From Sphingomonadales bacterium (GTDB lineage Bacteria; Pseudomonadota; Alphaproteobacteria; Sphingomonadales; Sphingomonadaceae), in the NCBI GenBank assembly GCA_017309275.1, contig JAFKLT010000043.1:24572-88571 (forward strand): 64,000 nucleotides of DNA. Reading direction: 5' to 3'. The stretch's first letter is position 1; each line of letters starts with the position of its first letter. Under the pieces are notes generated by a model. The model saw nothing but the letters and a program-made list of their open reading frames with translations. It was not told the origin of the DNA and made no database searches. Made by a program: the position numbers and the translations under genes. This document shows positions 45,479-64,000 of the stretch, piece by piece.

Positions 45479-47377
45479 TTAGAATGCCGTACCGAAGGTG
45501 ATCGAGAACGCCTTCGAACGATCGCCTGCCTGACGCACGACCGGCTGCGCAATGTTGAAGCGAAGCTTGCCCGGCGCGAGGTTGAACGACAGGCCGAAGC
45601 CGACCGCAACGCGCGGCTTTGCCGAATTGCCGATCAGCACTTCACCCGGCCCCAGTTCGGATCGCCGCGTGCCGAAAACCGACCCGGCATCGACGAATAT
45701 GCTCGGTGTTACCCCAAACTTATCCAGAGCGCCGTCCAGGCGCATCGACAGCTCGATCCGCCCGACATAGTAAGCGCTGCCGCCGATCGCGGTTGCCTGC
45801 CCCGGACCGGCGTTGACGGGGATCACCTTTGGTCCCAGGCCGCGAAGGTCGAAGCCGCGCATGCTGTTGCCGCCGATATAGAAACGGTCGAACAGCGGGA
45901 TATCGCGGCCGCCGAAGCCCTTCATATAGCCGCCCTCCAGCCCCAGCGAGACATCGAGGTTGCCGCTGAGGCGGCGCTGAAAAGTGCCCCCCGCGCGGAT
46001 CCGGACATAACGCGTCGTGCCCCCCGGACCGGCGATATCCTGCGTGACGCGGAGCTGGAAACCGCGCGTCGGATCAGTCGCGCTGTCGCGCCGGTCGAGG
46101 CTGAGCGCGACGCTGAAGACCGAACTGGTCGACGGGCCAAGCGCGTCGCAGAAGGGCGTGCCGTGAATGCCGACGTCGCAGAGAGCGTTCTTCCGGCGGA
46201 TGCGAAAGTCCTCGTCGGAAAAGCGGTAGTTGGCGGCGACGCGAAACCCGCGGTCGAGCTGCCGCCCGACATAGAAGTTGATGCCGCGCGCCGACTGGAC
46301 GAACAGCGAGGCGCTGTCGGCCCTGTCGAAACCGACCGCGGTCGAGCGCGAATAAAAGAAGGTGGGCGCCACGGCGAACTTGCTGCCCAGCAGATTGCCG
46401 TCGACCGCGCCGAGCTCGACGAGCGTCTGGACCTTTGAATAGCGCGCCGACACGCTGATGTCGCGGCCCGGCGCGCCGATGTTCGTGCGCGACAGCTTGA
46501 TCGACGCGATCGGTCCCTCGATCGACGAATAACCGCCCGACAGCGCCAGCCCGCCGCGCGACAGCGTCTGGAGCGACAGGAGATCGCCCTCGCGCGCCGC
46601 GCCGTCGGTCGCGGTGCTGTCGGCGGCAACGTCCATGTCGCGGCTCGGAACACCGCTGGCCGGATCGTCGTCGTCACGATCGGGGGCTGTCGACATCGGC
46701 TCGCCGGCGGCGTGCGGAGCCTGGCCGTCGAGCGCCGCAGCGGGGGCAAAGGCGTGCCGCGATCCCATGTCGGCGAGCGCGATCGCCGCCTGCCGCTTCG
46801 GGCCCGGATCGCCGAGCCAGGGCGCCGCGGCGGCTTCTCCGCCAAAGATTTGCGCCGTCGAGGGGGGTGCGTGGGCCGCAGGGTCCGACAGCGGGGCCGC
46901 ATCGAGGAACGGCGACGTATCGGCGGCAGGCACCAGCGTGTCGGCCAACAACGGCAGCGCCGATGCCGAAGGTGCATAGTCCGGCGCCCCGCCCGGCAAG
47001 GCCGGAGCATCGGCCAACACCGGCGCCAGCATCCCCACATAAGGAGGCTCCGTCCCCGCCATTTCGTCGAGCACCAAAGGTGGCCCCACCGCGTCCGCTT
47101 TGTCGATCAGGGGCCGCGTCGACGACGTCGGGGGGAACGCATGCTTTCGGGTACGCCGCGCGGCAACAGCCGGCAGCACGACGTCAAGCGGCACGTCGAA
47201 CGCACGATTGGAGGGGTAGGAAGCGATCGGCCCATAGCGCGTGTACGGGGGAAATATCGCCGGGCCGGGTACACCGGCCGATCCGGTACCGCCGATCCCG
47301 ATGGTGACCGCCACCCCCAGCGCAGTCCCCTGCACCGCCTGGTGGATGCCCTGGCAAAGTAATCCGTATCCGGACAA
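45479..47377 (-). CDS. BamA-like Omp85 beta-barrel lacking POTRA domains, with a long Pro/Ala/Asp-rich N-terminal region
   Basis: TTG start with a strong RBS; barrel motifs GLALSGGYSS, DPTRG, SMRGFDLRGLGP, IFVDAGSVFG, terminal FSITFGTAF align with bamA in this window. Confidence 0.85.
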   Translation of the reverse strand: MSGYGLLCQGIHQAVQGTALGVAVTIGIGGTGSAGVPGPAIFPPYTRYGPIASYPSNRAFDVPLDVVLPAVAARRTRKHAFPPTSSTRPLIDKADAVGPPLVLDEMAGTEPPYVGMLAPVLADAPALPGGAPDYAPSASALPLLADTLVPAADTSPFLDAAPLSDPAAHAPPSTAQIFGGEAAAAPWLGDPGPKRQAAIALADMGSRHAFAPAAALDGQAPHAAGEPMSTAPDRDDDDPASGVPSRDMDVAADSTATDGAAREGDLLSLQTLSRGGLALSGGYSSIEGPIASIKLSRTNIGAPGRDISVSARYSKVQTLVELGAVDGNLLGSKFAVAPTFFYSRSTAVGFDRADSASLFVQSARGINFYVGRQLDRGFRVAANYRFSDEDFRIRRKNALCDVGIHGTPFCDALGPSTSSVFSVALSLDRRDSATDPTRGFQLRVTQDIAGPGGTTRYVRIRAGGTFQRRLSGNLDVSLGLEGGYMKGFGGRDIPLFDRFYIGGNSMRGFDLRGLGPKVIPVNAGPGQATAIGGSAYYVGRIELSMRLDGALDKFGVTPSIFVDAGSVFGTRRSELGPGEVLIGNSAKPRVAVGFGLSFNLAPGKLRFNIAQPVVRQAGDRSKAFSITFGTAF

Positions 47378-47442
47378 CTTCCTTCCCCCTCTTCCGGAGC
47401 GCTAGGCCCCGGCCCACACCTCAGCTCGAAGCCGCCTTGGGG

Positions 47443-48801
47443 TCATGATTCCCGGAAGGATCGGTTGAAACTGTCGATCATCGGCTGGAACAGATATTGG
47501 ATCAGCGAATTCGACCCGAGGTTGATGTAAACCTCGGCCGGCATGCCCGACATCAACCGCACGCCGGGATAACGCTTCAATTGCTCGGGAGCGATTTGGA
47601 CGATCACCTTGTAGTATATCTGCTGGCTGTCCTTGTCGAAGATCGCATCGGGGCTGACCTCCTTCACCGTTCCGAGAAGGTTCGGGATCACGCGCGCCTT
47701 ATAGGGCGTCAGCTTGATTTCGGCCTTCAGGCCCGAATGGACCATGTCGATGTCGTTGGGACGCAGCCGCGCCGCGACCACGATCCCTTCGGACGAGGGC
47801 ACGATGTCCAATATCGGTTGCCCGGCCCCGACGACCCCGCCCGGGGTAATCAGCCGCAGATTGGCGACGCGCCCCTCGATCGGCGCCACGATCTGCTGGC
47901 GGGTGCGGACGTCGGCGCTGACCTTCAGCTTTTCCCTTGCCTCGGCGATCCGGAGCTGAACCTCGCGCTGCTGCGACGTCGCCTCCAGCGCCACCTGACC
48001 GCGCAGCGACACCATCTGGGCCCGCGTTTCGCCGATGGTGTCGCGAAGGCGATCGAGGTTGTTGGTCAGCTTGCCCTGCTCGCCCTCAACGAGCGCTTGC
48101 TGCCGCTGCAGCGCGAGCAGGCGCGACTTGCGCTCCAATCCCTCGTCCACCAGCATGTTCACGCCCATTTCCTCGTCGTTCAGCAGCTTGGCCTGGTCGG
48201 AAAGCGCGGCGATCTGCGCGTCGGAACTGCGTATATCTGCGTGCGACTGCCCGATCCGTTGCGTGAGGACCGCCGTCTGTTCCGAAAGCCCGCGCTGCCG
48301 CGACAGGAATTCGGCGTTGGACGCCGCGATGATCTCCTTGACCTCGGGGTCGCTCGCGACCGCGAGCAGTTCGGCCGGGTAGCGGATCGTCCGCAGCCCC
48401 AGCCGCTCGGCGGTCAGCCGCGCGTCCTGCGCCAGCAGGCCGTAAAGCGTCGAGCGCAGCGCGGCATCGGACGCGTCGGTCTGGGTGTCGTCGAGCTCGA
48501 CGAGCGGCTGGCCGGCGCGCACGAACTGCCCCTCCTCGACCAGGAAGCGACGAACGATCCCGCCCTCCAGATGCTGCACCGTCCGCCGCCCGCCACCCGC
48601 CGCCTCCAGATAGCCGGGCGCGATCGCGGCGCTGTTGAGCGGCGCGGCCCAGGCCCAGATCCCGAAGGCGATGACGAACAGGCCGATCGAGATCAGCGCC
48701 ATGCGGAGCGACCCGCGGACCCGGGGGCCCGGCGCGTGGCCGGCGAGCGCAGGCAGCGCGAGCGGCGCCGGATCGCGGCTCAGACTAAGCGGAACATTCA
48801 T
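47443..48801 (-). CDS. Type I secretion membrane fusion protein (HlyD/PrtE family)
   Basis: TM helix, WAWAAPLNSAAIAPG, TVQHLEGGIV, IVAPIEGRV, GVVGAGQPILDIVP, LMSGMPAEV; ATG overlaps the ABC gene stop. Confidence 0.95.
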   Translation of the reverse strand: MNVPLSLSRDPAPLALPALAGHAPGPRVRGSLRMALISIGLFVIAFGIWAWAAPLNSAAIAPGYLEAAGGGRRTVQHLEGGIVRRFLVEEGQFVRAGQPLVELDDTQTDASDAALRSTLYGLLAQDARLTAERLGLRTIRYPAELLAVASDPEVKEIIAASNAEFLSRQRGLSEQTAVLTQRIGQSHADIRSSDAQIAALSDQAKLLNDEEMGVNMLVDEGLERKSRLLALQRQQALVEGEQGKLTNNLDRLRDTIGETRAQMVSLRGQVALEATSQQREVQLRIAEAREKLKVSADVRTRQQIVAPIEGRVANLRLITPGGVVGAGQPILDIVPSSEGIVVAARLRPNDIDMVHSGLKAEIKLTPYKARVIPNLLGTVKEVSPDAIFDKDSQQIYYKVIVQIAPEQLKRYPGVRLMSGMPAEVYINLGSNSLIQYLFQPMIDSFNRSFRES

Positions 48802-50594
48802 GCCCCCGCTCCCTTCTGGTTGAACATGACCGGGTTGGTCTTTGCAGGGTCGCCGTGCGGTGCACCCTCGCCAGGCGCGATTACCCGCCGACTGCCGCTC
48901 ATCTCGGCAATCACGTTTCGGGCATCGCCGAATTTGGCCGCCTGTCCATCCACCATCAGCAGGATCTTGTCGGCCAGTTCGAGCAGGTTCGACCGATGCG
49001 ACACGATGATCGTCGTCATGTTCAGCGCCTTGAGCTTCTTGATCGTCGCCAACAGCGCCGCGTCGCCACGCGCGTCGAGGCTTGCATTGGGTTCGTCGAG
49101 CACGACCAGCGGCGGCAGTCCGTACAGCGCGCGCGCCAGCCCGACCCTCTGTCGCTGTCCCCCGGACAGTTGATGCCCGCCGTCGGTCAGAACGCAATCA
49201 TAGCCGCCGTCGAGGCGCAGGATCATGTCGTGGCAATCGGCCAGCTTGGCCGCCGCGATGATGTCCGCATCCCTTGCGTCGGGCCGAAATCGCCCGATGT
49301 TTTCGCGGATGGATCCCGGCAAAAGCTCGACGTCCTGCGGCAGATAGCCGACGTTGGGGCCGAAATCGCTGCGCATCCAATCGAAGGTATCGGCGCCGTC
49401 GAGCCGGACATGACCCGAACTCGGCTTCAGCACGCCGACCAGCAGGCGCGACAGGGTCGTCTTTCCCGACGCCGACGGCCCGACGATCGCGAGCATCTTG
49501 CCCGCGTCGATCGCGAAGGTGACATTCTTCAGGATCGCGCCCTTCACCCCCGGCGCAAAAAAGGTCAGCCCCTGGATCGCCATGGCGCCCGACGGCTTCG
49601 GCAGCGACATCTGCGACGGGCGCGCGACCGGCAGGTCGCAGAAGCGCGACAGGCGGCGCAGGCTTTCGCGCGCAAGCACGAACTGTTTCCAATAGCTCAT
49701 CGCCGCTTCGATCGGTGCGAGCAGCCGCGCGATGAGGATCGATCCGGCGATCATCGCGCCGCCGGTCAATTGCTGATCGAGAATGAGCAGCGCGCCGACG
49801 CCCAGCAATATGACCTGCACCAGGTTGCGGACGAACTTCATCCAGGCAAGCACCCGGCTCGACTGGAACTGCGTGCGATCCACGGACTCGGTCTCGGCAT
49901 AATAGCGTTCGGCCCAATGCCCGACCGTATCCTTGGCCATGCCCATCGCATCGATGACTTCGCTGTTGCGGACGAGCGACTCCGCATATTGCATGTTGCT
50001 GGCCGCCAGCTTCTGCGTCTCGCTGATCGCGCTGCGCGTGATCCGCTCATTGTACCAGGTGAGGCCGAACAGCACGACGGCGCCGACGAACGAGATCAGG
50101 CCGAAAATGGGATGCAAAAGGAAGACGACCACCAGGTAGAGCGGCACCCACAGCATGTCGACGACGCTGAAAACGGTGGGCGTCGATATGAAATTCTTGA
50201 CCTGCGCCAGCTCGCGCAGGGCTTCCAGTCGCGTTCCCGGTGTGATCAGCCTTTGCTCGAGCGAACGGATGAGCAGCGTCGGAGCGAGCCGCTGCGCCAT
50301 CCATGTGCCGACGCGGTTCGCCGCCTGTTGCCGCACACCGTCGAGGATCGCGCCAAGTCCGATGGCCAGCGAGATCGCGACCATCAGAAAGAACAGCGTA
50401 TCCTTGCTCTGGCTGGTCAGAACGCGGTCGAAAATCTGCATCATGTATAGCGACATGGCGAGAGCGGCCATGTTGGTGATCATCGAGAAGAGAATGAGCT
50501 GCGCGGCTATGCGGCGCTGCGGCCACAATATTTCCTTGAGCGGATTGGGTCCCTTTGCCGCTGCGCGCGGTTCGACCAGGGCGTTTGCCGCCAT
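48798..50594 (-). CDS. Type I secretion ABC transporter (PrtD/AprD/RsaD type, no C39-like domain)
   Basis: LYMMQIFDRVLTSQS, DMLWVPLY, GPSASGKTT (Walker A), GYLPQDVEL, LSGGQRQRVGLARA, LVVLDEPNASLD. Confidence 0.95.
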   Translation of the reverse strand: MAANALVEPRAAAKGPNPLKEILWPQRRIAAQLILFSMITNMAALAMSLYMMQIFDRVLTSQSKDTLFFLMVAISLAIGLGAILDGVRQQAANRVGTWMAQRLAPTLLIRSLEQRLITPGTRLEALRELAQVKNFISTPTVFSVVDMLWVPLYLVVVFLLHPIFGLISFVGAVVLFGLTWYNERITRSAISETQKLAASNMQYAESLVRNSEVIDAMGMAKDTVGHWAERYYAETESVDRTQFQSSRVLAWMKFVRNLVQVILLGVGALLILDQQLTGGAMIAGSILIARLLAPIEAAMSYWKQFVLARESLRRLSRFCDLPVARPSQMSLPKPSGAMAIQGLTFFAPGVKGAILKNVTFAIDAGKMLAIVGPSASGKTTLSRLLVGVLKPSSGHVRLDGADTFDWMRSDFGPNVGYLPQDVELLPGSIRENIGRFRPDARDADIIAAAKLADCHDMILRLDGGYDCVLTDGGHQLSGGQRQRVGLARALYGLPPLVVLDEPNASLDARGDAALLATIKKLKALNMTTIIVSHRSNLLELADKILLMVDGQAAKFGDARNVIAEMSGSRRVIAPGEGAPHGDPAKTNPVMFNQKGAGA

Positions 50595-50595
50595 C

Positions 50596-51807
50596 CTATT
50601 GCTCCCAGATAGGGGAGCTGTCGGCGGCGTGGAGCGGAAGGATCAGGCCGGAAATCAGGCCTGCAAGTTCCATCTGGCGATGGACGCCCAGCTTCGCACG
50701 GACACGCTTCAGATAGGTGCGCGCCGTTTCCTCCGACAGGCCGCAGCCCTCCGCCGCGTTGCACAGGCTGCTCGATCGCAGGAAGTGGCCGAGGAAGCGT
50801 TGCTCGGATGGCAAAAGCCCGAGGGCTTCGAGCAGCGACCGGGGCGCGTCAACCTTGCCCGCCCCCATGATGATCATCATGGCGCAGCGCGCCGTTCCGC
50901 CTTCCGACCGCGATTTGGCCGAAATCACATAGACCAGGCGCCAGTCGCCATTGCGGCAGTCGAGCCGGAATACATCCTCCACCGGCACGTCCGCCGTCGC
51001 GGCGCGGCGGATACTCTCGCGAAGCTGTTTCGCCTGTTGGGGGTCCACCGCGACGATCGCGCCGTCGGCCGCTCGGATCAGCCATTTGCGCTGTTCGACC
51101 ATCGCTGCCGCCGCGCTGTTTAGGAACAGCGGTTGGGCGTCTGCCGACAGCAACGCCATCGACAGCGAAACCCGATCGAACATGCCCTCCAGCATGGCGG
51201 AGCGGCGGGACTGGCGCGCGAGCTGCGCAACCCCGGCGGCGGAATCGGCGAGCAGAGGCGCTATCAACTGCAGGGAACAGCTGTCCTGCTCGCTGAACCG
51301 TCCGCATCCGCTCTTCCGAAAGAACAGCGCCTGAATATTCGCGCCATTCCGCCTCATCCGAATGGCGATGCCGCAATCATAGACGCGCGGCATGCTGCCG
51401 GCATCAACGCTGCCGGGCTCTTCGAGGCTGAAATCTACGGCTGCATCGGCCGCGGAAATCTGGAATTGGTGGACCGGCGCGTCCCCGATGCGCAGCCACA
51501 GATGGCCCATCATCTTCAGCAGCGCCTCGATCGCCTTGGGATTGCCCCGGGCCTCGTCCAGTCCGATCAGGAAGGAATGGCGCCGCGGCACGGCCCCCCG
51601 AAACGTGACCGTCAGAATCGCCGAAACGATGTCGAACTGTGCAAGATAGTCGTACCAGACCTTTCGGGTATTCGACGCCACGTCGACGACGCGCTCATGA
51701 CCGAGGCACACCTCATCCTGACCGAACTCACCTGCATCGCCATAGGTATCGCAACCATCGCCATTCGCGTCAGCGTAAAGCGTCGAAAGCTCCATATCCG
51801 AAGGCAT
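50596..51807 (-). CDS. Sensor-domain (GAF/PAS-like) transcriptional regulator with a LuxR-type C-terminal HTH
   Basis: PLFLNSAAAAM (PAS-like); GLLPSEQRFL...GLSEETARTYLKRVRAKLGVHRQMEL (LuxR HTH); stop lies 1 bp from the ABC start. Confidence 0.85.
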   Translation of the reverse strand: MPSDMELSTLYADANGDGCDTYGDAGEFGQDEVCLGHERVVDVASNTRKVWYDYLAQFDIVSAILTVTFRGAVPRRHSFLIGLDEARGNPKAIEALLKMMGHLWLRIGDAPVHQFQISAADAAVDFSLEEPGSVDAGSMPRVYDCGIAIRMRRNGANIQALFFRKSGCGRFSEQDSCSLQLIAPLLADSAAGVAQLARQSRRSAMLEGMFDRVSLSMALLSADAQPLFLNSAAAAMVEQRKWLIRAADGAIVAVDPQQAKQLRESIRRAATADVPVEDVFRLDCRNGDWRLVYVISAKSRSEGGTARCAMMIIMGAGKVDAPRSLLEALGLLPSEQRFLGHFLRSSSLCNAAEGCGLSEETARTYLKRVRAKLGVHRQMELAGLISGLILPLHAADSSPIWEQ

Positions 51808-52171
51808 TATGGTCCCCCCATGAGTCATAGGCCGGACGCGAGCGCCAACGCCCGCGACAGGAAATGCATGCGCGACCATGATGTGGACGCGACGCTCCGG
51901 GTACGGACAGAACGCGCGTCTTTGGCTGGGATACCTCGAACTTTGTTTCCCTAGCCGAAGCTGTCGATTGACGTGGATCTCTCGATAGCGCCGCCTGCTG
52001 CCAGAGCTGCAGGAGACAGCCGACGTCTATTTCGATTCGACCGAGAGAGTCTATTATCCCCTCGGACATATCCGTTTGGGTAGTTTCCCGCCGCGCCGCC
52101 GCGCACTAGTCTCCATGCATAAGAAAAAAGGGGCGTCGCGCTCGAATCCAGCGAGATTCAGGAGAGGCGAA

Positions 52172-53743
52172 GTGCGGAATTTCTCGACATTCGGAGCGGT
52201 CGTGCTGAGCGCGTCCTGCACCGCGCTGACGATCGCGATCGGCGCGACGCCGCTGGCCGCGCAGGACGCCCCAGTGGGCAATATCCCGTCGGGCACGATG
52301 GCCGGGCTGGCGCGCCACGTCGTCGAATTCAATCCGGATGTCGTGGCGCAGCGCCAGCAGGTCCGCATCGCAAAGGCGCGGCTCGAGTCTGCCGAGGCAG
52401 GCTATCTGCCCACGATCCAGGCAAGCGGGCTCGTCCAAAGGCGCGAGATCGACGTCAAGAAGGGCGGCACCGGCGACTCCGAATATACCGCGGGACAGGC
52501 ATCGATCGAGGCGCGGCTGCGCTTCTATGACGGCAATCGCACCTATAACGCCGTCAAGATCGCCAAGGCCGAACTGCAGGCGGCGGAGGCAGGCCTGCAG
52601 GGCACCGCCTCGGACATCCTGCTCGAACTGTTGACCAGCGCGGCCGACATCCATCTCAACCGGAAGATATTGGAATATTCGCAGGCGCAGAGCGACGCGA
52701 TCGGCGAGCAGCTTCGTGCGACCGAACGCCGGCTGGAATTCGGCGAGGCGACCCGGACCGATCAGGAACTGGCACGCGCGCGGCTCGCGACGTCGGAGGC
52801 CGGCGTCCTTGCCGCGACCGAACAGCTCAACGTCACCAGCTATCGCTTTCGATCGGTCAGCGGCCTGTCGGGCACGGCGACACCGCCCCTGCCTTCGCTC
52901 GCGGCGATACCCGGCTCGCTTGGCGAAGCGCAGCGCATCGCGTCCGAAAATGCACCGCGGTTGCGCGCCGCGCGCCTGAACGCGCAGGCGGGAAAGTCCG
53001 GGGTCAATTTCGCATCGGGGGCGCTGCTGCCGCAGCTCGACGCGGTGAGCGGCTATGAATATCTGACCGGCGGCGTCGCCAATCTGTTCACCGGCAAGCT
53101 GCCCAAGGATCGTTCGTCGCTCTATTATGGCGTCGAACTGAACGTCCCCATCTTTCAGCCGCGCGACCATGCCGAGGTTCGCCGCGCGCGCGCCGTCCGC
53201 GACCAACGGCTGGCGCAGGCGAATTCCGCCGAGCGGACGGTGGCGGAGGAAGTGGGCAGCTATTGGACGCAGTGGCAGTCGGCGAAGAGCACCATCGCCG
53301 CCGCCGAGACGGCCGTCGCCTCGATCGAGAAGGCGGCCGAAGGCATAAAGAAGGAGGCGGTGGGCGGAAACCGGACGCTGACCGACGTCCTCAACGCGCA
53401 GAACGAGCTGCTCTCGGCCCGGGTGACGCTGGAGCGGGCGCGCCGGGCGGAGTTCGTGGCGCGCGCCGGCCTGCTCGCCGCGATCGGACAGCTCGACACC
53501 GATGCGATCGTCGAGGGGCGCTGCTGCGCCGGCGACCCGATCACGCGCCCCGACTCGTCGCGGCTCGGCAAGCCCGTCATCGCGGCCGCCCCCGACGCGG
53601 CGCCGCGACCGGAGGCCGCGACCGAGCGGCCGCAACGATCGGCGCTCGGCAAGGATGTCAGGCTGGCCCGCATCGACAAGGTGCCGCCCCCGGTGGATGC
53701 CGCGCGCCCCGGCGCCTCGACACTCGGGCGCAGGCCCGACTAG
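52172..53743 (+). CDS. TolC-family outer-membrane channel
   Basis: GTG start with AGGAG RBS, signal peptide, AGYLPTI, RLEFGEATRTD, GNRTLTDVLNAQNEL. Confidence 0.93.
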   Translation: MRNFSTFGAVVLSASCTALTIAIGATPLAAQDAPVGNIPSGTMAGLARHVVEFNPDVVAQRQQVRIAKARLESAEAGYLPTIQASGLVQRREIDVKKGGTGDSEYTAGQASIEARLRFYDGNRTYNAVKIAKAELQAAEAGLQGTASDILLELLTSAADIHLNRKILEYSQAQSDAIGEQLRATERRLEFGEATRTDQELARARLATSEAGVLAATEQLNVTSYRFRSVSGLSGTATPPLPSLAAIPGSLGEAQRIASENAPRLRAARLNAQAGKSGVNFASGALLPQLDAVSGYEYLTGGVANLFTGKLPKDRSSLYYGVELNVPIFQPRDHAEVRRARAVRDQRLAQANSAERTVAEEVGSYWTQWQSAKSTIAAAETAVASIEKAAEGIKKEAVGGNRTLTDVLNAQNELLSARVTLERARRAEFVARAGLLAAIGQLDTDAIVEGRCCAGDPITRPDSSRLGKPVIAAAPDAAPRPEAATERPQRSALGKDVRLARIDKVPPPVDAARPGASTLGRRPD

Positions 53744-53899: not shown

Positions 53900-54023
53900 A
53901 TTCGTCCCCGGGCCCCCGCCATATCCAATGCTCATGGCCTTGTAATCTCAAGGCCATCCGGGTGTGTTTTGGCTGGTCAGGCGAAAGCGCATCCATTCGA
54001 CCAGAAACGAAGAGGATAGCGAA

Positions 54024-56730: not shown

Positions 56731-56977
56731 TCCGAAAGTATGAGTGCGCATACCGCAAATTGCCATTGCAGAATCATCGACCCAGGTTTGTATTTGACGG
56801 GTCAGTGACCAGGCACGGGCATCGGGCGCCAAAGAGACCCAGCACGATCACAACTGCATTCAGCTTCGCTCCACACCCTGTCGGCGTGGAAGCGCGGCGC
56901 CGTCCATAGCGGCCGGGCCCTTCGCGGGGAACGGCATCGGATGGGCAGATGTCGAGGTGGAGGGGGACCGAAGGGCG

Positions 56978-59900
56978 ATGGAGCGAAGGTCAATTCAGCA
57001 GCCCGCCGAAGCGGCCGGCGCAGCGAAAGCCGTTCCCGCAGGATCGACGAGCATCCAGCCCGCCGGCGGCGTGGTACAACTGCCGCCCGGAACGCGGCTC
57101 GACGCCATCAAATTGTCCGGCAACGACCTGATCGTCACCCTGCCCGATGGGCAGGTCCTGGTCATCATCGATGGCGCGCTTCAGATTCCGCAGGTCAAGA
57201 TCGGCCCGATCAACATCCCCGCCCCGACGATCGCCGCGCTGATCGCGGGACAGGAACCGGAACCGGCGGCCGGCGCACCGCAAAGCTCCGGCGGGAATTT
57301 CGAACAGACACCCGGCGACATCGGCTCGCCCTTCGCTTTGGGCGACCTGTTGCCGCCGACCGATTTCGCGCTGCCCGACCGCGAGGCGAACGAACTGATC
57401 CCCAACGCAATCGACGATGAGCCGGAGATACTGATCACTACCCCCGATCAGCCGGCTGGCGCCACCTCGGCCACGGCAACGGTGGCCGAGGCGGCGCTTC
57501 CCCCACGCGGCAGCGAGCCCGCCGGATCGGACCCCGCCTCGACCGCCGAAGCGATCAGCGGCACGATCCAGATCAGCGCGCTGGATCAACCCAGCGTCGT
57601 GTCGGTCAACGGTACGGTCGTCACGGCGATCGGACAGGTCATCGCGACGCCGCTCGGCCAGATCACGATCACCAGCATCGCGCCCGACGCGATCGGCTAC
57701 AGCTATACGCTGACCGACAACAGCACCGACCCGAATGCGACCGACACGGTCACCGTCACGGTCACCGACAATGACGGCGACGTCGCAACCGCCACGCTGA
57801 CACTGACCATTACCGATGATGCGCCGACGGCACGCGCCGATACCGACGACGTCGCCGACGGCACCGCGCGGGGCAATGTCATCACCGGCGCCAATACGAC
57901 CAGCGACGTCGCCGGGGCCGATACGCCCGGCGCCGACGGTGCGGTCGTCAGCGGGGTTCAGGTCGGATCGGACGGCACCTTCGCGCCGGCGGGGACGGCG
58001 GTCAACGGCCAGTACGGCCGCCTGCTGATCGGTGCCGACGGTACCTATGTCTACATCCGCGCGGCGGGCACGCCCGGCGGCGTCTCCGACGTCTTCACCT
58101 ATCGGCTGACCGACGGCGACGGGGATACCGCGACGGCGACGCTGACGATCCGGATTCCGGACAGCACTCCCACGCTCACCGTCCCCTCGGCGGGCGGCGA
58201 AGGAACGCTGGTCGACGAGGCCGGCCTGCCCGAAAGCGACGGCGGATCGCCCGGATCGCGCGCGGGCGACGACAGCAACGCGACCTCCGGCATCATCCAG
58301 TACAGCGCCGCCGACGGCCCCGCCGTCATCACCATCAACGGCGTCCAGATCACCGGCGAGGGACAGGAAATCCAGCTCGACACCGGCATCTTCCTTGTCA
58401 TCGCGATCAATCCGGACTCGATCGAATATGCCTTCGTCCTGACCGACAATGTGATCGGCGATCCGGCGTCGCAGCCGATCATGGTCGGCATCACCGACAG
58501 CGACGGCGACACCATATCCGCCAGCTTCGATATCGACATTCTCGACGACATGCCCGACGCACGCGCCGACACCGACAGCCTGACCGCGGGCGTCGACGAA
58601 GCGGCGACGGGGAATGTCGTCACCGACGCCGAAAATGACGGCGGGCGCGACGTACCGGGTGCCGACGGCGCGACCGTCACGGCCATTTCGGCCGGCGGCG
58701 AAAACGGCACCGTCGGCGGCGCGACGGCCGGCGCCTATGGCGCGCTGGAGATCGCGGCGGACGGCAGCTATCGCTATGTGATCGATCCCGAAAATACAGA
58801 GGTTCAGGGGCTCGACGGCGACGAAGAGCTGACCGAGACATTCGATTATGTCCTGACCGACGGCGACGGCGACGAGGTCACGGCGACGCTGACCATCACC
58901 ATTCGCGGGCGCGACGACGGCGTGACGCTGACCGGGCTCAATCCCGCGGGTGCCGAGGTGACGGTCGCGGAGGCCAGTCTTTCGGACGGGTCGAACCCCG
59001 ACAGCGTCGCGCTGACCCAGACCGGCAGCTTCAGCTTCGACGCCGCGGACGGCATTGCCGCGCTGACGATCGGCGGCGAGCCGCTGTTCGACGGCACGGT
59101 CATTCCCGGACTGACGATCGCGACCGCGCTCGGCATACTGACGATCACCGACTTCGAACCGATATTCGATGCGGTGGGCGACGTCGTCGGCGGCACCATC
59201 AGCTACAGCTACGAGCTGATCGACAACAGCCTGCTCCACAGCGGTGCCAACGGCGCATCACTTACCGAATCCTTTGCGATCCAGATCGTCGACAGCGACG
59301 GCACGACCGCGACGGCCAGCCTGGATGTCCAGATACTCGACGACAATCCGGTGGCCCGCTCTGCCCCGTCGATCACGGTGGCGGAGGACGCGCCGCCGAT
59401 TTCGGGCAATCTGCTGGCGAACGACACGCGGGGCGCCGACGGCGCGGTCGTTACCTCGGTCACCGTCGGCGGCGTGATGGTCGCGGTCGCGGCGACCGGA
59501 ACGACCAGCTACACCAATGCCAACGGCACCTACAGCTTTCAGCCGAACGGCGCGTGGACGTTCGATCCGGTCACGAAGACCAGCGCCTTCGCGGTGAACG
59601 CCGACTTCACCTATACGATCACCGACGGCGACGGCGACCAGTCGTCGGCGCTGCAACAGATCCGCATCGCCGACGGCACCGATCCGCACGCCAGCGCGCC
59701 GATCACCCTTGTCGTCGACGACCAGAATCTGGAAACCGGGTCGACCCCCTCGGTCGTCCAGCCGGTTTCGGCGAGCGGCCAGATCACCTTCACCGCCGGT
59801 TCCGACGCCATCGCGTCGATCGGCTTCGGCGACCTGTCGACCCTCGACGGCGGGCTGAGCTGGACCTTCGAATCCGCCACGCAGATTATCGGTTGGGACG

Positions 59901-62900
59901 CCGACCAGAACGCGGTCATCGTGATCGACCTCGGCGTGTCGGGCAATGTCGCGACCGTCACCGCGACGCTGCAGTATAATTACGGCCTGCATCCCGACAC
60001 GACGATCGACGACATCGCCAACCTGGGCTCGATCACCGTCGTCGCGACCGACGCAGACGGCGACACGGCGGCCGGGACCGTCAATCTTTCGGTGTCCGAC
60101 GACATACCCTCGATCAGCGCGGCGGGTTCGGCGGCCGGTTTGCTGGTCGTCGACGAAACCGATCTCGCGACCAATGCGACGGCGAATTTCGCCAGCCTGT
60201 TCAACATGACGGTCGGCGCCGACATGGCGGGCAGCGGCGTGACCTACAGCTTCGAGGTGACGAACGCGTCCGGGCTGATCGACGTCGCGACGGGACAAAA
60301 GATCATATTGAACGCGGCCGGCAATGTCGTGGAGGGCCGCCTTCAAGGTTCGCCCTCCACCGTCGCGTTCCGGTTGACGGTCGGGGCCGACGGCATCGCG
60401 ACGCTCGACCAGATTCGCGCCGTTCGGCATCCCGATGCCTCGAACCCCAACGACAGCGTCACGCTTTCGCCGACGCTGATCCGGCTGACCGCGACCATCA
60501 CCGATGGCGACGGCGACCATGCGTCGGCAACCGCGCTGGTCGGCGCCGCATTGGTGTTCAAGGACGACGGGCCGTCGATCAGCGCCGCGAACGTCGACAC
60601 GAACAGCATCACCCTGACGACGCAGGATGCCGACACGCGCGGCGCGGCGTTCGACACGGCGACCGCCGATCTGTCGGGCGCCTTTTCGGTTTCGATGGTG
60701 CAATTCGGGGCGGACGGCCCGGCCGGTACGGGCCTGGCGACATGGTCCTATTCCCTGGCGCTGGGCTCGGCGGTCGCGACCACCGCCCTGTTCAGCAACG
60801 GCGTGCCGGTCACGCTGTCCCTCGTATCTGGCGAGATCGTGGGCAGCGCGGGCGGCACGCCTATTTTTTCCATCGCCGTGAACGCGGCGACCGGCATCGT
60901 CACGCTGACCCAGTTTGCCGAGATCGATCATCCGCTGCCGGGCTCGTCCGGCAATTATGCGGCGCAGCTCGTCACGCTCGCCGTCAATCTGGTCGAACTG
61001 CACGGCACCGCGACGATCGTCGACGGCGACGGCGATGCGATTTCGGCGACCGCGATCGTCGACCTGGGCGGCAATATCCGCTTCGCCGATGACGGCCCGT
61101 CGATATCCGCCGGCGGCACCGCACCGAACCTGGTCGTCGACGAAAGCAATTTCGCGGTCGACGCGACCGCCAATCTGTCGGGACTGTTTGCCGTGACGAC
61201 CGACTTCGGCGCCGATGGCCCGGGCAGCGTCGCCTACAAGCTGGGCGTGACGGCCGGCGCCAGCGGCCTGATCGACTCGCTGACGGGCGAAGCGGTGGTC
61301 CTGTCGATCACCGACGGCGTCATCTCTGGCCGCACCGCTACGCAGGAGGTGTTCCGCATCTCTGTGGACGCCGCGGGCGTCGTCACTTTCGACCAGTCGC
61401 GCGCGGTGATCCACAGTCCCGACAGCGGTCCCGATCAGATAATGTTCCTTTCGGGCAGCAACCTCATCACGCTGACCGCAATCGTCACCGACGGCGACGG
61501 CGACACCGCGCAAACGACCGCCGATATCAGCGGGCATTTCGCGATCCGCGACGATGCGCCGGTCGCGGTGCACGACGACGACAATGTTTCGCGCGATGGA
61601 CAGATTTTTGCCGACGGCAATGTGCTGACCGGGATCGGCGGAACCGACGAAAACGGCATGGACGGATCGCCCGACAGCGCGGGGAGCGACGGGGGGCTGC
61701 GCGTCGTCGGCGTGGCGTTCGGCGCGACGGTCGGGACGCTCGGCACCGCGCTGGCCGGCGCCCATGGCACGATCACGCTCGCCGTGGACGGCAGCTATCG
61801 TTACGATCTCGATCCCAATGATCCGGCGGTCATCGCGCTCGACTCCAACGAGACGCTGACCGAGACTTTTCAATATACCGTGCGCGATGCCGACGGCGAC
61901 GCATCGACCGCGACGATCACGATCAGCATCACCGGCGCGAACGACTTTCCCATCGCGCGCGCCGACACCAACTGGGTGCTCGACGGGCCGAGCGGGTCGG
62001 ACCCGAGCGCGACCGGCAATGTGCTGCAGAATATCGCCCACCCCGTCGCGCCCTTCGGCAGCTTTGCCGATGTCGCGGACAACGACCCCGACCTGGAGGC
62101 GATCACCGTCACCACGGCGGGCACCTATGTCGGGCTTTACGGCACGCTCGTGATCGCGGCCGACGGCGGCTACACCTATACGCTCGACGAGGACAAGGCG
62201 GCGGTGAACGCGCTCGACGCGGGCCAGACGCTGGTCGACAGCTTCGCCTATACGATCAGCGACGGTTCGCTGTCGGTCGGCTCGATGCTCAGCGTCACCG
62301 TCTTCGGAACGAACGACGCGCCCACGATCGGCACCGCGATCGCGCGCATCTCCGAAGAGGGGCTGGTCGGCGGGCTTCCCGACAATGCCCCGAACGCGAC
62401 GCTCGACACGACGAACAGCACGGCGGCCAGCGGCGTCCTGGCGATCGGCGACGCCGACGCGGGCGAAACGCTGACCGCGACGCTGGGCAATCCGGGGGCG
62501 GTGCTGACCGCGGGGGGCATTCCCGTCACCTGGACGGGGGTCGGCACCGGCACGCTGATCGGCTCGGCGGGCGGATCGGAGGTCATTCGCGTGACCCTCG
62601 CCGCCAACGGCGCCTATACCGTCACGCTGTCGCACGCGGTCGATCATCCGACCGTCGCGCTGGAGGATCTGAAGAACTTCTCGGTCCCGGTGTCGGTGTC
62701 CGACGGTACCGTGACGACGACCAGCGCGTCGGCGATCCAGATCGTGATCGAGGACGATGCGCCGACGGCGCAGGGCGAGACGGGTTCGTCGGCGCAGATT
62801 CAACAGGACGTCAACACGCTCTTCATCCTCGATTTCAGCGACAGCATCGACAGCGGAGAGCTCAACACGATGATCGGCGCGGTCCAGGGCGCGCTGACGC

Positions 62901-64000
62901 AGCTCGACAATGCCGCGTCGGGGGCGATGACCATTCGCTTCGTCATCTTTTCGTCGGGCTCCTTCGCCTCGCCCTCCTTTTCCAACGCGGCCGATGCGAA
63001 CGCCTATCTCACCTCGCTCAACCCGCTGGCGGGCGGCGAGCGGCCGTCGCAGGCGCTGCCGCCCGACGGGATCGGGCTCAACACCAACTATTCGGGCGCG
63101 ATTCAGACCGCGCTCGCCAATTTCACCGCGATCCCGGGGGCGAGCAACCAAGTCTTCTTCCTCAGCGACGGCAACCCGAACCAGCAGGTGCAGTTCGGCG
63201 GCGTTCCGCCCGGGGTTGTCAACTCGCTGACGGCCTCCACCGCCACCGCCTGGAACAGCTTCATCGACAATAACCACGTAAACGTCACCGCCATCGGCAT
63301 CGACAACAACCCGCTGCAGCCCCTCAACATCCAGCGGCTGCGCGACGTCGACCTGAACGATGCGCCGAACAACAATCCGATCCTGGTCGACGATTTCCAG
63401 GATCTGGTGGCGACGCTGCTGTCGGTGATCGTGCCGTCAGCGGTGGCGGGCGATCTGGACGCGAACGATGCCTTCGGCGCCGACGGCGGCCGCCTGCTCT
63501 CGATCACCATCGGCTCGACCACCTATACGTGGGACGGTGCATCGAGCATCGCGGTTTCCACCGGCGGCACGATTGCGGGAAGCGCGCTGAACGCGGTCAC
63601 GACGCCGATGGGCGGGACGCTGACGCTCGACTTCGCGACGGGCCAATATAACTACCAGCCGCCGAGCCCGATCACGGTCACCGCGACCGAGGTCTTTTCC
63701 TACGTCGTGACCGACCGCGACGGCGATACCGCGACCGCCAACCTGTCGGTGACGATCACGGCGCTGGCGCCGCCGATCGCGATGGACCTGGACGGTGACG
63801 GGGTCGAATTCTTGCCCGGCGCCGCCGGCGTCCGCTTCGACTATGATGGCGACGGCAAGCCCGAAAGCACCGCCTGGGTCGCGGCCGACGACGGGCTGCT
63901 CGCGATCGACAAGAATGGCGACGGCAAGATCAACGACGGATCCGAACTCGTCTTCGGCAAGGCCGGCGTGTCCGACCTGCAGGGACTGGCCGCGGCCTAT
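56978..64000 (+). CDS. Giant LapA-like T1SS adhesin (partial, >2341 aa): N-terminal retention-like module, VCBS/Ig-like and DUF5801-like repeats, vWA domain, C-terminal DLDGDG region
   Basis: ATG at 56978. The frame was open at every point I spot-checked, no ORF-track entry lies in this frame, and it reaches the window end (AGVSDLQGLAAAY). Motifs: PEPAAG..SSGGNF, repeated TDGDGD and DDAP, LTETFDY, FGADGPG, MIDAS DFSDS at 62831, FFLSDGNP, PIAMDLDGDGVEF. Confidence 0.9.
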   Translation, partial: MERRSIQQPAEAAGAAKAVPAGSTSIQPAGGVVQLPPGTRLDAIKLSGNDLIVTLPDGQVLVIIDGALQIPQVKIGPINIPAPTIAALIAGQEPEPAAGAPQSSGGNFEQTPGDIGSPFALGDLLPPTDFALPDREANELIPNAIDDEPEILITTPDQPAGATSATATVAEAALPPRGSEPAGSDPASTAEAISGTIQISALDQPSVVSVNGTVVTAIGQVIATPLGQITITSIAPDAIGYSYTLTDNSTDPNATDTVTVTVTDNDGDVATATLTLTITDDAPTARADTDDVADGTARGNVITGANTTSDVAGADTPGADGAVVSGVQVGSDGTFAPAGTAVNGQYGRLLIGADGTYVYIRAAGTPGGVSDVFTYRLTDGDGDTATATLTIRIPDSTPTLTVPSAGGEGTLVDEAGLPESDGGSPGSRAGDDSNATSGIIQYSAADGPAVITINGVQITGEGQEIQLDTGIFLVIAINPDSIEYAFVLTDNVIGDPASQPIMVGITDSDGDTISASFDIDILDDMPDARADTDSLTAGVDEAATGNVVTDAENDGGRDVPGADGATVTAISAGGENGTVGGATAGAYGALEIAADGSYRYVIDPENTEVQGLDGDEELTETFDYVLTDGDGDEVTATLTITIRGRDDGVTLTGLNPAGAEVTVAEASLSDGSNPDSVALTQTGSFSFDAADGIAALTIGGEPLFDGTVIPGLTIATALGILTITDFEPIFDAVGDVVGGTISYSYELIDNSLLHSGANGASLTESFAIQIVDSDGTTATASLDVQILDDNPVARSAPSITVAEDAPPISGNLLANDTRGADGAVVTSVTVGGVMVAVAATGTTSYTNANGTYSFQPNGAWTFDPVTKTSAFAVNADFTYTITDGDGDQSSALQQIRIADGTDPHASAPITLVVDDQNLETGSTPSVVQPVSASGQITFTAGSDAIASIGFGDLSTLDGGLSWTFESATQIIGWDADQNAVIVIDLGVSGNVATVTATLQYNYGLHPDTTIDDIANLGSITVVATDADGDTAAGTVNLSVSDDIPSISAAGSAAGLLVVDETDLATNATANFASLFNMTVGADMAGSGVTYSFEVTNASGLIDVATGQKIILNAAGNVVEGRLQGSPSTVAFRLTVGADGIATLDQIRAVRHPDASNPNDSVTLSPTLIRLTATITDGDGDHASATALVGAALVFKDDGPSISAANVDTNSITLTTQDADTRGAAFDTATADLSGAFSVSMVQFGADGPAGTGLATWSYSLALGSAVATTALFSNGVPVTLSLVSGEIVGSAGGTPIFSIAVNAATGIVTLTQFAEIDHPLPGSSGNYAAQLVTLAVNLVELHGTATIVDGDGDAISATAIVDLGGNIRFADDGPSISAGGTAPNLVVDESNFAVDATANLSGLFAVTTDFGADGPGSVAYKLGVTAGASGLIDSLTGEAVVLSITDGVISGRTATQEVFRISVDAAGVVTFDQSRAVIHSPDSGPDQIMFLSGSNLITLTAIVTDGDGDTAQTTADISGHFAIRDDAPVAVHDDDNVSRDGQIFADGNVLTGIGGTDENGMDGSPDSAGSDGGLRVVGVAFGATVGTLGTALAGAHGTITLAVDGSYRYDLDPNDPAVIALDSNETLTETFQYTVRDADGDASTATITISITGANDFPIARADTNWVLDGPSGSDPSATGNVLQNIAHPVAPFGSFADVADNDPDLEAITVTTAGTYVGLYGTLVIAADGGYTYTLDEDKAAVNALDAGQTLVDSFAYTISDGSLSVGSMLSVTVFGTNDAPTIGTAIARISEEGLVGGLPDNAPNATLDTTNSTAASGVLAIGDADAGETLTATLGNPGAVLTAGGIPVTWTGVGTGTLIGSAGGSEVIRVTLAANGAYTVTLSHAVDHPTVALEDLKNFSVPVSVSDGTVTTTSASAIQIVIEDDAPTAQGETGSSAQIQQDVNTLFILDFSDSIDSGELNTMIGAVQGALTQLDNAASGAMTIRFVIFSSGSFASPSFSNAADANAYLTSLNPLAGGERPSQALPPDGIGLNTNYSGAIQTALANFTAIPGASNQVFFLSDGNPNQQVQFGGVPPGVVNSLTASTATAWNSFIDNNHVNVTAIGIDNNPLQPLNIQRLRDVDLNDAPNNNPILVDDFQDLVATLLSVIVPSAVAGDLDANDAFGADGGRLLSITIGSTTYTWDGASSIAVSTGGTIAGSALNAVTTPMGGTLTLDFATGQYNYQPPSPITVTATEVFSYVVTDRDGDTATANLSVTITALAPPIAMDLDGDGVEFLPGAAGVRFDYDGDGKPESTAWVAADDGLLAIDKNGDGKINDGSELVFGKAGVSDLQGLAAAY

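Follow-up and report, generated by a model that had tools for sequence, protein, structure and literature searches.

What is an Omp85 barrel doing at the end of a T1SS operon when it carries none of the POTRA domains of its BamA relatives? Textbooks present the T1SS as a machine of three parts and Omp85 proteins as insertases or translocases that depend on POTRA, and neither account provides an obvious place for such a protein. The gene in question lies in a 64,000-nucleotide stretch of DNA from a Sphingomonadales bacterium (the window), whose relevant features are collected in Table 1. The answer offered here moves from the architecture of the protein through its descent to its genomic company, and from there to the roles it might play.

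Table 1. Features of the Omp85 gene and its neighbours; positions count from the first letter of the window.
Feature	Position	Strand	Basis and remarks
POTRA-less Omp85/BamA paralogue, whole gene	45479..47377	-	632 aa, TTG start, TAA stop; ORF list and translation
16-strand Omp85 barrel, aa 274-632	45482..46558	-	AlphaFold strands, Foldseek, PDB sequence matches, invariant columns
Disordered Pro/Ala/Asp-rich region, aa 31-273	46559..47287	-	pLDDT, composition, GC3, motif map, family length range
N-terminal hydrophobic helix, aa 1-30	47288..47377	-	family conservation, model helix aa 2-26, codon-position entropy
Shine-Dalgarno site AGGGGGAAGG	47381..47390	-	3 nt upstream of TTG start; sequence
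HlyD-family T1SS adaptor	47443..48801	-	TIGR01843 E=4.7e-103
PrtD-type T1SS ABC permease/ATPase	48798..50594	-	TIGR01842 E=1.2e-181, above cut-off
Regulator of ~400 aa, first operon gene	50596..51879	-	C-terminal LuxR/sigma-70 region 4 type HTH; weak GerE match
TolC-family outer-membrane channel, divergent	52076..53743	+	TIGR01844 E=1.6e-61; PF02321 OEP E=3.1e-53
Beta-roll RTX protein, ~724-744 aa	53964..56198	+	HemolysinCabind, 21 stretches, E=1.5e-91
Giant adhesin (Big_9, Cadherin_4, DUF5801)	56957..64000	+	Pfam; runs past window end

A BamA-like barrel behind a disordered tail

PF01103 (Omp85) is the sole Pfam family in the 632-aa protein (aa 304-632, E=4.5e-46, 158 bits against a 24-bit cut-off), and the NCBIfam BamA model TIGR03303 aligns through its barrel part only (model positions 398-741), at 180 bits and thus under the equivalog cut-off of 297 bits. 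AlphaFold places 16 long strands over aa 274-631, with pLDDT mostly 80-95; Foldseek with the modelled barrel returns BamA barrels (E=5e-21, target-normalised TM 0.74-0.78), and the PDB sequence matches are BamA barrels together with three weaker mitochondrial Sam50 barrels. This segment carries MRGF in loop 6 (aa 506-509), F-V-D-A-G in strand 13 (aa 561-565), Cys400 and Cys410, Gly629 and a C-terminal Phe. Both lid-lock elements of the Omp85 superfamily, (V/I/M)RG(F/Y) in loop 6 and FxDxG in strand 13, are therefore present, and model and alignment agree that the dome-forming loop 6 is BamA-like with its lid-lock motif intact. Among 55 family members many barrel residues are without variation: R507, G508, F509, D510, C400 and C410 are invariant, and F561, D563, G565 and G629 are kept in at least 90% (invariant in an 18-member alignment).

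Upstream of the barrel, aa 1-273 consist of a hydrophobic N-terminal helix and then a Pro/Ala/acidic disordered region (21% Ala, 14.5% Pro and 10% Asp over residues 40-273) whose length ranges from 118 to 413 aa across the family. AlphaFold assigns pLDDT below 50 to aa 1-270 of the paralogue and to aa 1-139 of a divergent member, and no folded domain upstream of strand 1 emerged from Pfam, hhalign or two AlphaFold models. For POTRA in particular, Pfam gave no family at E<=0.01, NCBIfam models showed none either, hhalign of 62 family N-termini against 15 Sphingomonadales BamA POTRA regions gave a probability of 0.1%, and the beta-alpha-alpha-beta-beta fold is absent from both models, which come from divergent clades. 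An earlier note made from the letters of this DNA had proposed just such an architecture, a BamA-type barrel in which a low-complexity Pro/Ala/Asp region takes the place of the POTRA domains, and composition, profile searches and structure prediction all bear it out, with no cryptic POTRA coming to light.

Two short motifs can be recognized in the disordered region, F..D....WLGD.G..R.A (aa 176-197) and DGQA.E.DLL immediately ahead of strand 1, and one of the two is restricted to the Sphingopyxis clade in the family alignment. Between close orthologues the tail is 33-44% identical against 77-84% for the barrel; so poorly conserved a tail is, outside the two motifs, a less convincing candidate for specific binding. 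The preceding helix (aa 1-30) has the consensus SGYG(I/L)LFRGVHQAVQGTALGVAV.G.G, kept across the family alignment, and resembles a signal peptide, but one with neither a clear basic n-region nor a consistent AxA cleavage site; Sec export through it is assumed. A lipoprotein signal was considered and rejected: although in some members a Cys lies close to where the helix ends, the lipobox L-[AS]-[GA]-C is absent from the alignment.

Descent from BamA and coding status

The genome retains its canonical BamA (window 16994-19714, minus strand; five POTRA matches), to which the paralogue is 29% identical over the barrel (BLASTP, E=3e-49). The alignment reproduces every motif pair that the earlier note had quoted, here as paralogue / BamA: GLALSGGYSS / ELSLSAGFSS; CDVGIHGTPFCDALG / CDPLIAGRYLCDAIG; PTRG in both; MRGFDLRGLGP / MRGFDIRGIGP; and FGTAF / VGTQF. 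It also shows that the second Cys-containing loop insertion of BamA is missing from the paralogue, as the note had read. A glycine three residues before the C-terminus and a terminal F are common to the two proteins, and, among the BamA sequences compared, MRGFD[IL]RG and F[VL]D[AV]GSVFG are common only to the family and the genome's own (Sphingomonadales) BamA. Set beside BamA in general (TIGR03303; PF01103 plus five PF07244 POTRA domains), the paralogue shares the 16-strand barrel, (V/M)RGF, FxDxG, the near-C-terminal glycine, the terminal aromatic residue of the beta-signal and the alphaproteobacterial Cys pair, but it has no POTRA, its barrel is ~78 aa shorter through missing loop insertions, a disordered extension has been added, and its gene belongs to a T1SS operon, outside the gene neighbourhood that is conserved around BamA.

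The family is narrow (~24 representatives at 50% identity, mostly Sphingomonadales), and a profile search among 1.84 billion representatives separates it cleanly from BamA: no member scores below 284 bits and no BamA above 258. The tree recovers the family as a single clade (99/100) whose sister is Sphingomonadales BamA (91/91), with a stem of 1.27 substitutions per site. Both the length of this stem and the low identity to the BamA of the same genome mark the duplication as old. The suggestion of a recent duplication thus survives only in part: descent from the BamA lineage is upheld by the tree and the derived motifs, while recency is ruled out by the stem. Judged from these comparisons, the paralogue is an old duplicate of Sphingomonadales BamA that lost all five POTRA domains.

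Absence of POTRA alone is not new. A noNterm class of Omp85 proteins without POTRA was described in 2014 (Heinz and Lithgow, PMC4104836) and studied in Leptospira in 2024 (LIC12252/12254/12258; PMC11358297), and Sam50 functions without its POTRA (PMC4104836, PMC11358297); the premise from which the earlier note argued, that BamA, TamA and TpsB all rely on POTRAs, is outdated now that this class is known. Like the noNterm proteins, the paralogue combines an Omp85 barrel that keeps the lid-lock motifs with the lack of any folded N-terminal, periplasmic domain, and in this sense it belongs with them, though it has a long disordered extension instead of a short stub. The stubs of noNterm proteins are 22-43 aa long, with DUF5982 in a subset, whereas the extension in the paralogue family is several times that length and PF01103 is the only Pfam family, DUF5982 giving no Pfam match in the paralogue. 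Reports place noNterm genes in varied surroundings, none of them with a T1SS, whereas the paralogue family is T1SS-linked. The lack of a DUF5982 match and the place beside Sphingomonadales BamA, in a tree that includes no described noNterm sequence, point to a loss of POTRA independent of the described noNterm groups (the DUF5982-bearing proteins of Leptospira and Cytophagales). By contrast, neither the disordered tail nor the constant linkage to a T1SS appears to have been described.

Low complexity and poor conservation of the N-terminal region, together with frames broken in a few MAG loci (L011, L031), might suggest a decaying BamA pseudogene whose N-terminus is a frameshift product or a spurious upstream extension of the ORF in a GC-rich genome. 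Comparison across loci effectively refutes this reading. The Shine-Dalgarno sequence and start codon (AGGGGGAAG and TTG) are invariant in 20 Sphingopyxis-clade loci, with the remaining upstream DNA variable; codon-position entropy over the N-terminal peptide is 0.42/0.30/0.81, so that the third position varies most, a mark of coding constraint; and GC3 of the disordered region is 80% in frame. The frame is open in nearly all loci although lengths vary threefold, and wherever the N-terminal and barrel motifs were both found it runs unbroken from one to the other; many barrel residues stay invariant across the 55 sequences. The orthologues, to which the earlier note had looked for a frameshift-derived N-terminus as a sign of decay, instead have open frames and an invariant start.

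The T1SS locus and its variants

The Omp85 gene closes a co-oriented run of LuxR-like regulator, PrtD-type ABC exporter and HlyD adaptor; these four genes and the divergent TolC and beta-roll RTX genes form a six-gene module. The HlyD and PrtD genes overlap by 4 nt (ATGA, the hlyD ATG lying over the PrtD stop), a gap of 65 nt precedes the Omp85 gene, and no terminator above chance was found between HlyD and Omp85; we infer that the operon is co-transcribed. The RTX gene is the best conserved of the module (64-85% identity across loci), and its product is the probable cargo.

In 39 of the 40 informative loci (the window, 34 distinct further loci and L054-L057) the Omp85 gene lies directly after HlyD and PrtD, so the final place in a T1SS operon that had been noticed in this one sequence holds for nearly all loci that could be judged. 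The linkage extends to members scoring 284-366 bits against the family profile and persists while barrel identity drops to ~30-45%, over at least two orders by MAG labels. It is not absolute: in a Sphingorhabdus MAG (L035) it is a solitary gene flanked by TonB-dependent receptor genes, and no T1SS lies nearby. The LuxR-like regulator has 174 homologues, the three most distant of those examined remaining in the same module, and its family co-occurs with the Omp85 family in the same distribution. A divergent TolC gene is found in every locus long enough to judge; since the locus has its own TolC, the barrel would be an addition to the exit duct and not a replacement for it. Near-constant last place in one T1SS operon suggests that the protein is an undescribed fourth component of that system. 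Literature searches on Omp85 with T1SS, with LapG or with BTLCP, and on sphingomonad T1SS brought up no account of the arrangement, and a preprint on the Zymomonas T1SS does not mention Omp85.

Several orthologous loci include a further gene in the same operon, for a LapG-like BTLCP protease with a Cys-His-Asp triad. The triad is intact (GDCEDY...DHA...D) in three loci where the gene starts 36-152 nt downstream of Omp85 (L005, L006, L055), and LapG-like matches lie downstream of Omp85 in two more (L036, L041); the 64-kb window contains no LapG-like gene. Adhesins similar in kind to the giant adhesin of the window adjoin the module in L054 and L055. The sequence PAAG is visible in the N-terminus of the window's adhesin. 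A LapG-type di-alanine site in the Omp85 tail was also considered and dropped, as HAAG occurs in the paralogue and its nearest relative but is not conserved.

The Lap-type T1SS of Pseudomonas fluorescens comprises LapBCE with LapA, the LapG protease and the LapD receptor, and to our knowledge Lap systems have no Omp85 component. As in Lap-type systems, also known from Legionella (PMC11264772), the T1SS here lies beside a giant repeat adhesin and, in the orthologous loci just described, in one operon with a LapG-like protease, but LapD was not seen beside the LapG-like gene of the orthologues. No literature link between LapG and a T1SS-associated Omp85 barrel was found. A second partial parallel is the Borrelia BBJ25 cluster, in which an Omp85-family barrel lies beside a MacB-like ABC transporter (PMC13078400, a computational study). 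Both are cases of such a barrel in a conserved envelope-spanning ABC export cluster; in Borrelia, however, the companions are a MacB-type (type VII) ABC protein with LolA-like and chaperone proteins, for which lipoprotein export is proposed, and here they are PrtD, HlyD and TolC with RTX cargo, and the two lineages are unrelated.

Possible roles and their implications

The reading that we favor, with a probability of roughly 0.55, is that this ancient duplicate of Sphingomonadales BamA serves as a dedicated outer-membrane accessory of its T1SS. The earlier note had taken it for a repurposed insertase or pore, which it may be. On the accessory reading the barrel would be placed in the outer membrane next to TolC, and the disordered tail, as expected from Omp85 topology, would hang into the periplasm. 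There the flexible tail could contact a periplasmic partner (HlyD, TolC or, where present, the LapG-like protease) through its short conserved motifs, and the BamA-like barrel may handle a polypeptide, either by assembling or anchoring the outer-membrane part of the system or by holding RTX cargo at the cell surface. Because the module includes TolC and a canonical T1SS needs only three parts, no known step demands an Omp85 protein.

A stronger version can be envisioned, though only tentatively, as a four-part T1SS in which the POTRA-less BamA-derived barrel is an obligate partner of TolC and its tail docks on HlyD. The seam of the barrel would then capture or anchor the RTX cargo or the adhesin at the surface after exit through TolC; alternatively, the barrel would assemble a dedicated TolC. 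In lineages with a LapG-like protease and no LapD, the tail could hold or present the protease, yielding an adhesin-release switch based at the outer membrane.

Other readings set the T1SS aside or redraw the protein's topology. The paralogue might be a general auxiliary insertase of outer-membrane proteins or a stress paralogue, roles that have been put forward for noNterm proteins in Leptospira, and its T1SS adjacency would then be meaningless. The varied neighbourhoods of POTRA-less Omp85 genes elsewhere, the POTRA-independent function of Sam50 (PMC4104836, PMC11358297), the unlinked Sphingorhabdus gene and the BamA lid-lock and gate features kept in the barrel all suit this idea, but it leaves unexplained a placement right after HlyD that all informative loci but one retain and a LuxR-like regulator family distributed identically; linkage held over such great divergence is improbable in the absence of selection, and we regard this reading as unlikely. 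Less probable again is a self-exporting type V-like protein, whose disordered N-terminus would pass as a passenger through the protein's own barrel to be displayed at the surface. The order of domains, an N-terminal extension followed in the same polypeptide by a C-terminal Omp85-type 16-strand barrel, is that of type Vd (PlpD), and the extension shows the acidity and variability that are frequent in regions exposed at the surface; PlpD, however, has a folded patatin passenger and one POTRA, neither of which Pfam or AlphaFold detects in the paralogue, nor is there any enzymatic domain. The lid-lock loop, intact as in BamA, speaks against a passenger route as well, and T1SS linkage would go unexplained.

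Conservation of the helix across the family and the long proline-rich spacer after it also bring to mind a two-membrane tether, in which an uncleaved inner-membrane helix, a Pro/Ala-rich periplasmic span (cf. TonB, VirB10) and the outer-membrane barrel would mark or stabilize the T1SS site. Pro at +1 blocks signal peptidase I, and in the alignment Pro can be read at +1 of several candidate cleavage sites. Yet the hydrophobic core of the helix spans only ~12-15 residues, many of them Gly and Thr, hydrophobicity on the Kyte-Doolittle scale peaks at only 1.65 over 15 residues, and the best 19-residue window on the Hessa scale comes to ~+6 kcal/mol (hand sum), far from a stable membrane helix; an inner-membrane anchor is rejected on these values, and we know of no outer-membrane beta-barrel with such an anchor, which makes the tether very improbable. 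Weaker still is an alternative outer-membrane exit duct that would serve the ABC-HlyD pair instead of TolC. Many T1SS operons do have the gene for their outer-membrane factor right after that of the adaptor, the very slot occupied here, but the constant presence of TolC in loci long enough to judge rules out its replacement, and the modelled barrel is BamA-like, without the periplasmic alpha-helical tunnel on which HlyD could dock.

Loss of the POTRA domains, the disordered tail and T1SS linkage kept through deep divergence imply for the protein a job outside both textbook pictures. Sphingomonads have no LPS, and candidate jobs include anchoring of RTX proteins at their surface, assembly of a dedicated TolC and control of adhesin release. 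Whatever that job is, nature has here run an experiment on the abilities of a BamA barrel deprived of POTRA domains and BAM lipoproteins. A four-part T1SS, if true, would for the first time couple Omp85 and T1SS machineries in function.

A BamA-derived barrel behind a translated, disordered extension

The sole Pfam family in the 632-aa protein is the Omp85 barrel (PF01103, aa 304–632, E=4.5e-46), and no POTRA model of Pfam matches it at E<=0.01. This HMM scan was a check proposed in an earlier note on the sequence; together with the ORF and the composition of aa 40–273 (Ala 21%, Pro 14.5%, Asp 10%), it bears out the coordinates, Omp85 barrel and Pro/Ala/Asp-rich N-terminus reported there. The NCBIfam BamA equivalog aligns to the barrel part only (model positions 398–741) and scores 180 bits, under its cut-off of 297. 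By BLASTP, aa 275–632 are 29% identical to the genome's canonical BamA (E=3e-49), and the alignment reproduces every motif pair the note had listed, the Cys pair included, as well as the absence from the paralogue of a Cys-containing BamA loop insertion. In an AlphaFold2 model built with a 55-sequence alignment, aa 274–632 form a confident barrel of sixteen long strands, with blocks mostly at 80–95 pLDDT. Its top structural matches are BamA barrels (E down to 5e-21, target-normalised TM 0.74–0.78), which also lead a PDB sequence search, followed only by three far weaker mitochondrial Sam50 barrels. Loop-6 RGFD is among the residues invariant across the family's barrels, and the strand-13 F.D.G motif and C-terminal glycine are kept in at least 90% of members. 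The family's barrel derives from BamA and has evolved under strong purifying selection.

Chance upstream extension of ORFs is frequent in GC-rich genomes, so the start of the Omp85 gene was tested. A Shine-Dalgarno site, AGGGGGAAGG, precedes the TTG start; across 20 orthologous loci of the Sphingopyxis clade the TTG is invariant, the Shine-Dalgarno nearly so, and the other upstream DNA variable. Over the first 32 codons, entropy is 0.42, 0.30 and 0.81 at positions 1, 2 and 3, and such a peak at the third position marks translated sequence, as opposed to an element acting as DNA or RNA. The low-complexity part has a GC3 of 80%, as do adjoining genes. A conserved N-terminal peptide (consensus SGYG(I/L)LFRGVHQAVQGTALGVAV.G.G) runs through the family, and from it to the first barrel strand the frame is open family-wide over a spacing of about 127 to 374 aa; the entire extension measures 118–413 aa in 62 family proteins. 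Broken frames in a few MAG loci (L011, L031) are taken for assembly errors or occasional loss. A frameshift-derived N-terminus, which the note had raised against itself, is contradicted by the conserved start, coding entropy, GC3 and open frames. As to annotation, a second clade has GTG in place of TTG, with a strong Shine-Dalgarno; the query start codon occupies 47375–47377 of the window; the member in locus L054 apparently starts at an upstream TTG, not at the annotated ATG; and several database entries begin too late, at MQGTALG.

Almost all of aa 1–270 falls below 50 pLDDT, and the only elements predicted there are a helix at aa 2–26 and a short one at aa 192–202. A second model, of the divergent and shorter P0052 (500 aa), likewise has a disordered segment (aa 1–139) before the barrel (144–500). 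Compared profile to profile with POTRA regions from 15 BamA proteins, the 62 N-termini gave a probability of 0.1%. With the Pfam null and the two disordered models, this leaves no cryptic POTRA in the extension, as the note had supposed in finding none recognisable upstream of the barrel. The extension, variable in length, is thus translated and disordered. Its N-terminal helix, moderately hydrophobic (Kyte-Doolittle maximum 1.65 over 15 residues) and abundant in Gly, Ala and Thr, fits a signal-peptide h-region rather than a membrane anchor; it is atypical, since on our reading of the alignment it has neither a clear basic n-region nor a consistent cleavage motif. Sec export is assumed. The tail also carries F..D....WLGD.G..R.A (aa 176–197), mainly in the Sphingopyxis clade, and DGQA.E.DLL immediately ahead of strand 1.

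Near-obligate linkage to one T1SS module

The Omp85 gene lies 65 nt beyond the HlyD gene on the same strand; no terminator above chance was found in the gap, and the two are probably co-transcribed. Searching all fetched loci with tblastn recovered the order RTX, TolC / regulator, PrtD, HlyD, Omp85 in the window and 34 further distinct loci. The 174 homologues of the regulator are as narrowly distributed as the Omp85 family, which suggests a regulator specific to the module; the three most distant of them (43–48% identity) all belong to this module and have a POTRA-less Omp85 of 456–535 aa beside them. P0221, a 451-aa protein whose profile score is marginal for the family, is encoded directly after a HlyD gene. 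Overall, linkage holds in 39 of 40 informative loci: association with a single T1SS module, itself equipped with a TolC, is near-obligate, and the position last in a T1SS operon described in the note stands. The exception, a 573-aa member in a Sphingorhabdus MAG (L035), lies between TonB-dependent receptor genes, with an IclR regulator and hydrolase genes also flanking it; it may be either an additional copy or a gene that has moved.

Several observations concern the partners. The regulator is cytoplasmic, its C-terminal LuxR/sigma-70 region 4 HTH is weak, and in some sources it goes by 'PAS domain-containing'. Of the module's products, the beta-roll RTX protein is conserved best (64–85% identity where the Omp85 barrel has 45–84%); secreted proteins are seldom so conserved, and a structural role is suggested. 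In locus L054 (a contig of GCA_041730635.1 labelled Cypionkella sp.) the whole module is present, with a 456-aa POTRA-less Omp85, and its proteins are only 29–43% identical to those of the window; either a binning error or horizontal transfer from a Sphingomonadales source could account for it.

Beyond the Omp85 gene, contents vary. LapG-like proteases with an intact catalytic GDCEDY...DHA...D signature follow it in L005, L006 and L055, and in L036 and L041, too, the barrel gene is followed by LapG-like matches. The protease of some lineages has a signal peptide along with the intact Cys-His-Asp signature. No LapD gene lies beside the LapG-like gene in those loci, and the 64-kb window has no LapG-like gene. 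Sphingopyxis has an XRE regulator and an AhpC-TSA/2OG-Fe(II) oxygenase in its place. The same fused oxygenase, with no obvious signal peptide, recurs past Omp85 in L007, L034, L037, L054 and L055; it might modify a module product, the Pro-rich tail and the Asp/Asn-rich repeats of the RTX protein being candidates.

Coordinates and annotation of the features (positions in the window unless a locus is named)
Feature	Position	Strand	Remarks
Canonical BamA	16994-19714	-	Same genome and window
Fused AhpC-TSA/2OG-Fe(II) oxygenase	43577-44809	+	PF13640, prolyl-hydroxylase-like; just past Omp85 gene
POTRA-less Omp85/BamA-type gene	45479-47377	-	632-aa ORF, TTG start
HlyD adaptor		-	TIGR01843, E=5e-103; ATG overlaps PrtD stop
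PrtD-type ABC exporter		-	TIGR01842, E=1e-181
Regulator	50596-51879	-	Roughly 400 aa, C-terminal LuxR-type HTH; first gene of operon
TolC-family channel			Divergent from Omp85 operon
Beta-roll RTX protein	53964-56198	+	21 HemolysinCabind stretches
Giant adhesin			Big_9/Cadherin/DUF5801; divergent from Omp85 operon
LapG-like BTLCP protease	L005 11540-12391; L006 10597-11682; L055 16300-17163		36-152 nt downstream of Omp85
Unlinked Omp85 member	L035 5592-7313

Descent and relation to known Omp85 proteins

Four genes of the Omp85 superfamily occur in the genome: BamA, TamA-like, TpsB and the POTRA-less paralogue. A maximum-likelihood tree of barrel domains (37 rows, rooted on TpsB) sampled 14 family members, 10 Sphingomonadales-type and 9 other BamA, and the genome's BamA and TamA, without reference noNterm, PlpD or E. 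coli-type TamA sequences. The family forms a monophyletic group (99/100) whose long stem measures 1.27 substitutions per site, with the Sphingomonadales BamA clade as sister (91/91, not starred) and the BamA of other bacteria outside. Long-branch attraction would be expected to pull toward TamA or TpsB rather than toward the Sphingomonadales BamA clade. MRGFD[IL]RG (vs FRGFQ.AG), F[VL]D[AV]GSVFG and a G-T-x-F C-terminus are shared by the family and the genome's own BamA and absent from the BamA of other bacteria compared. Placement, stem and motifs together indicate that the duplication from BamA suggested earlier is genuine but old, not recent. Among 1.84 billion representative proteins, the profile search separated the family (964 down to 284 bits) cleanly from BamA-type proteins, which begin at 258 bits. 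The family comprises about 24 representatives (full-length members 451–741 aa); those with names are Sphingopyxis, Sphingorhabdus and other Sphingomonadales, and one divergent cluster is labelled Cypionkella (a Rhodobacterales MAG; MAG-locus labels are as deposited).

The earlier note's observation is confirmed and its interpretation partly supported: it cited the reliance of BamA, TamA and TpsB on POTRAs, and POTRA-less Omp85 proteins are an accepted class, the 'noNterm' proteins (Heinz and Lithgow, 2014; PMC4104836), with three Leptospira paralogues in a 2024 study (PMC11358297). The POTRA-less state alone is therefore already known. Unlike the present family with its long tail and T1SS, however, noNterm proteins have 22–43-aa stubs and are encoded in varied neighbourhoods with no link to a T1SS; DUF5982, present in some of them, is absent from this family. 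The Borrelia Omp85 BBJ25, adjoining a MacB-like ABC transporter (PMC13078400, 2026, computational), is a loose precedent for an Omp85 within an ABC export cluster, in a different system. The adhesin and the LapG-like protease also occur in Lap-type adhesin T1SS, which have no Omp85. The literature searched contained no description of the sphingomonad module and nothing tying LapG, BTLCP or T1SS to a T1SS-associated Omp85 barrel; as far as we found, no BamA-derived lineage combining a long disordered tail with fixed linkage to a T1SS has been described.

A possible role in secretion

Strand 1 of Omp85 barrels begins at the periplasmic face, as established for BamA, TamA and FhaC structures, and for this reason the tail is predicted to lie in the periplasm, with the protein itself probably in the outer membrane. 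A part in the module's T1SS is likely on the evidence of gene linkage. Rival readings are a general auxiliary insertase, for a gene almost always beside one T1SS; a type V-like self-exporter; a two-membrane tether, to be set beside an N-terminal helix that suits a signal peptide; a TolC substitute, in a module with its own TolC; and a pseudogene, against which the conserved start and open frames speak. The invariant TTG suggests a low copy number, a weak argument for a machine part or catalyst over stoichiometric anchoring of an abundant secreted protein. Barrel N-termini in some alphaproteobacteria are reportedly bound covalently to peptidoglycan (work of Godessart et al. 2021), and by analogy a peptidoglycan tether is conceivable for the tail.

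We consider it slightly better than even (about 0.55) that the protein is a dedicated outer-membrane accessory of the module's T1SS. As such an accessory, it would use the tail as a flexible tether with short binding motifs, and its barrel would still act on a polypeptide: the outer-membrane part of the system itself, or RTX cargo at the cell surface.
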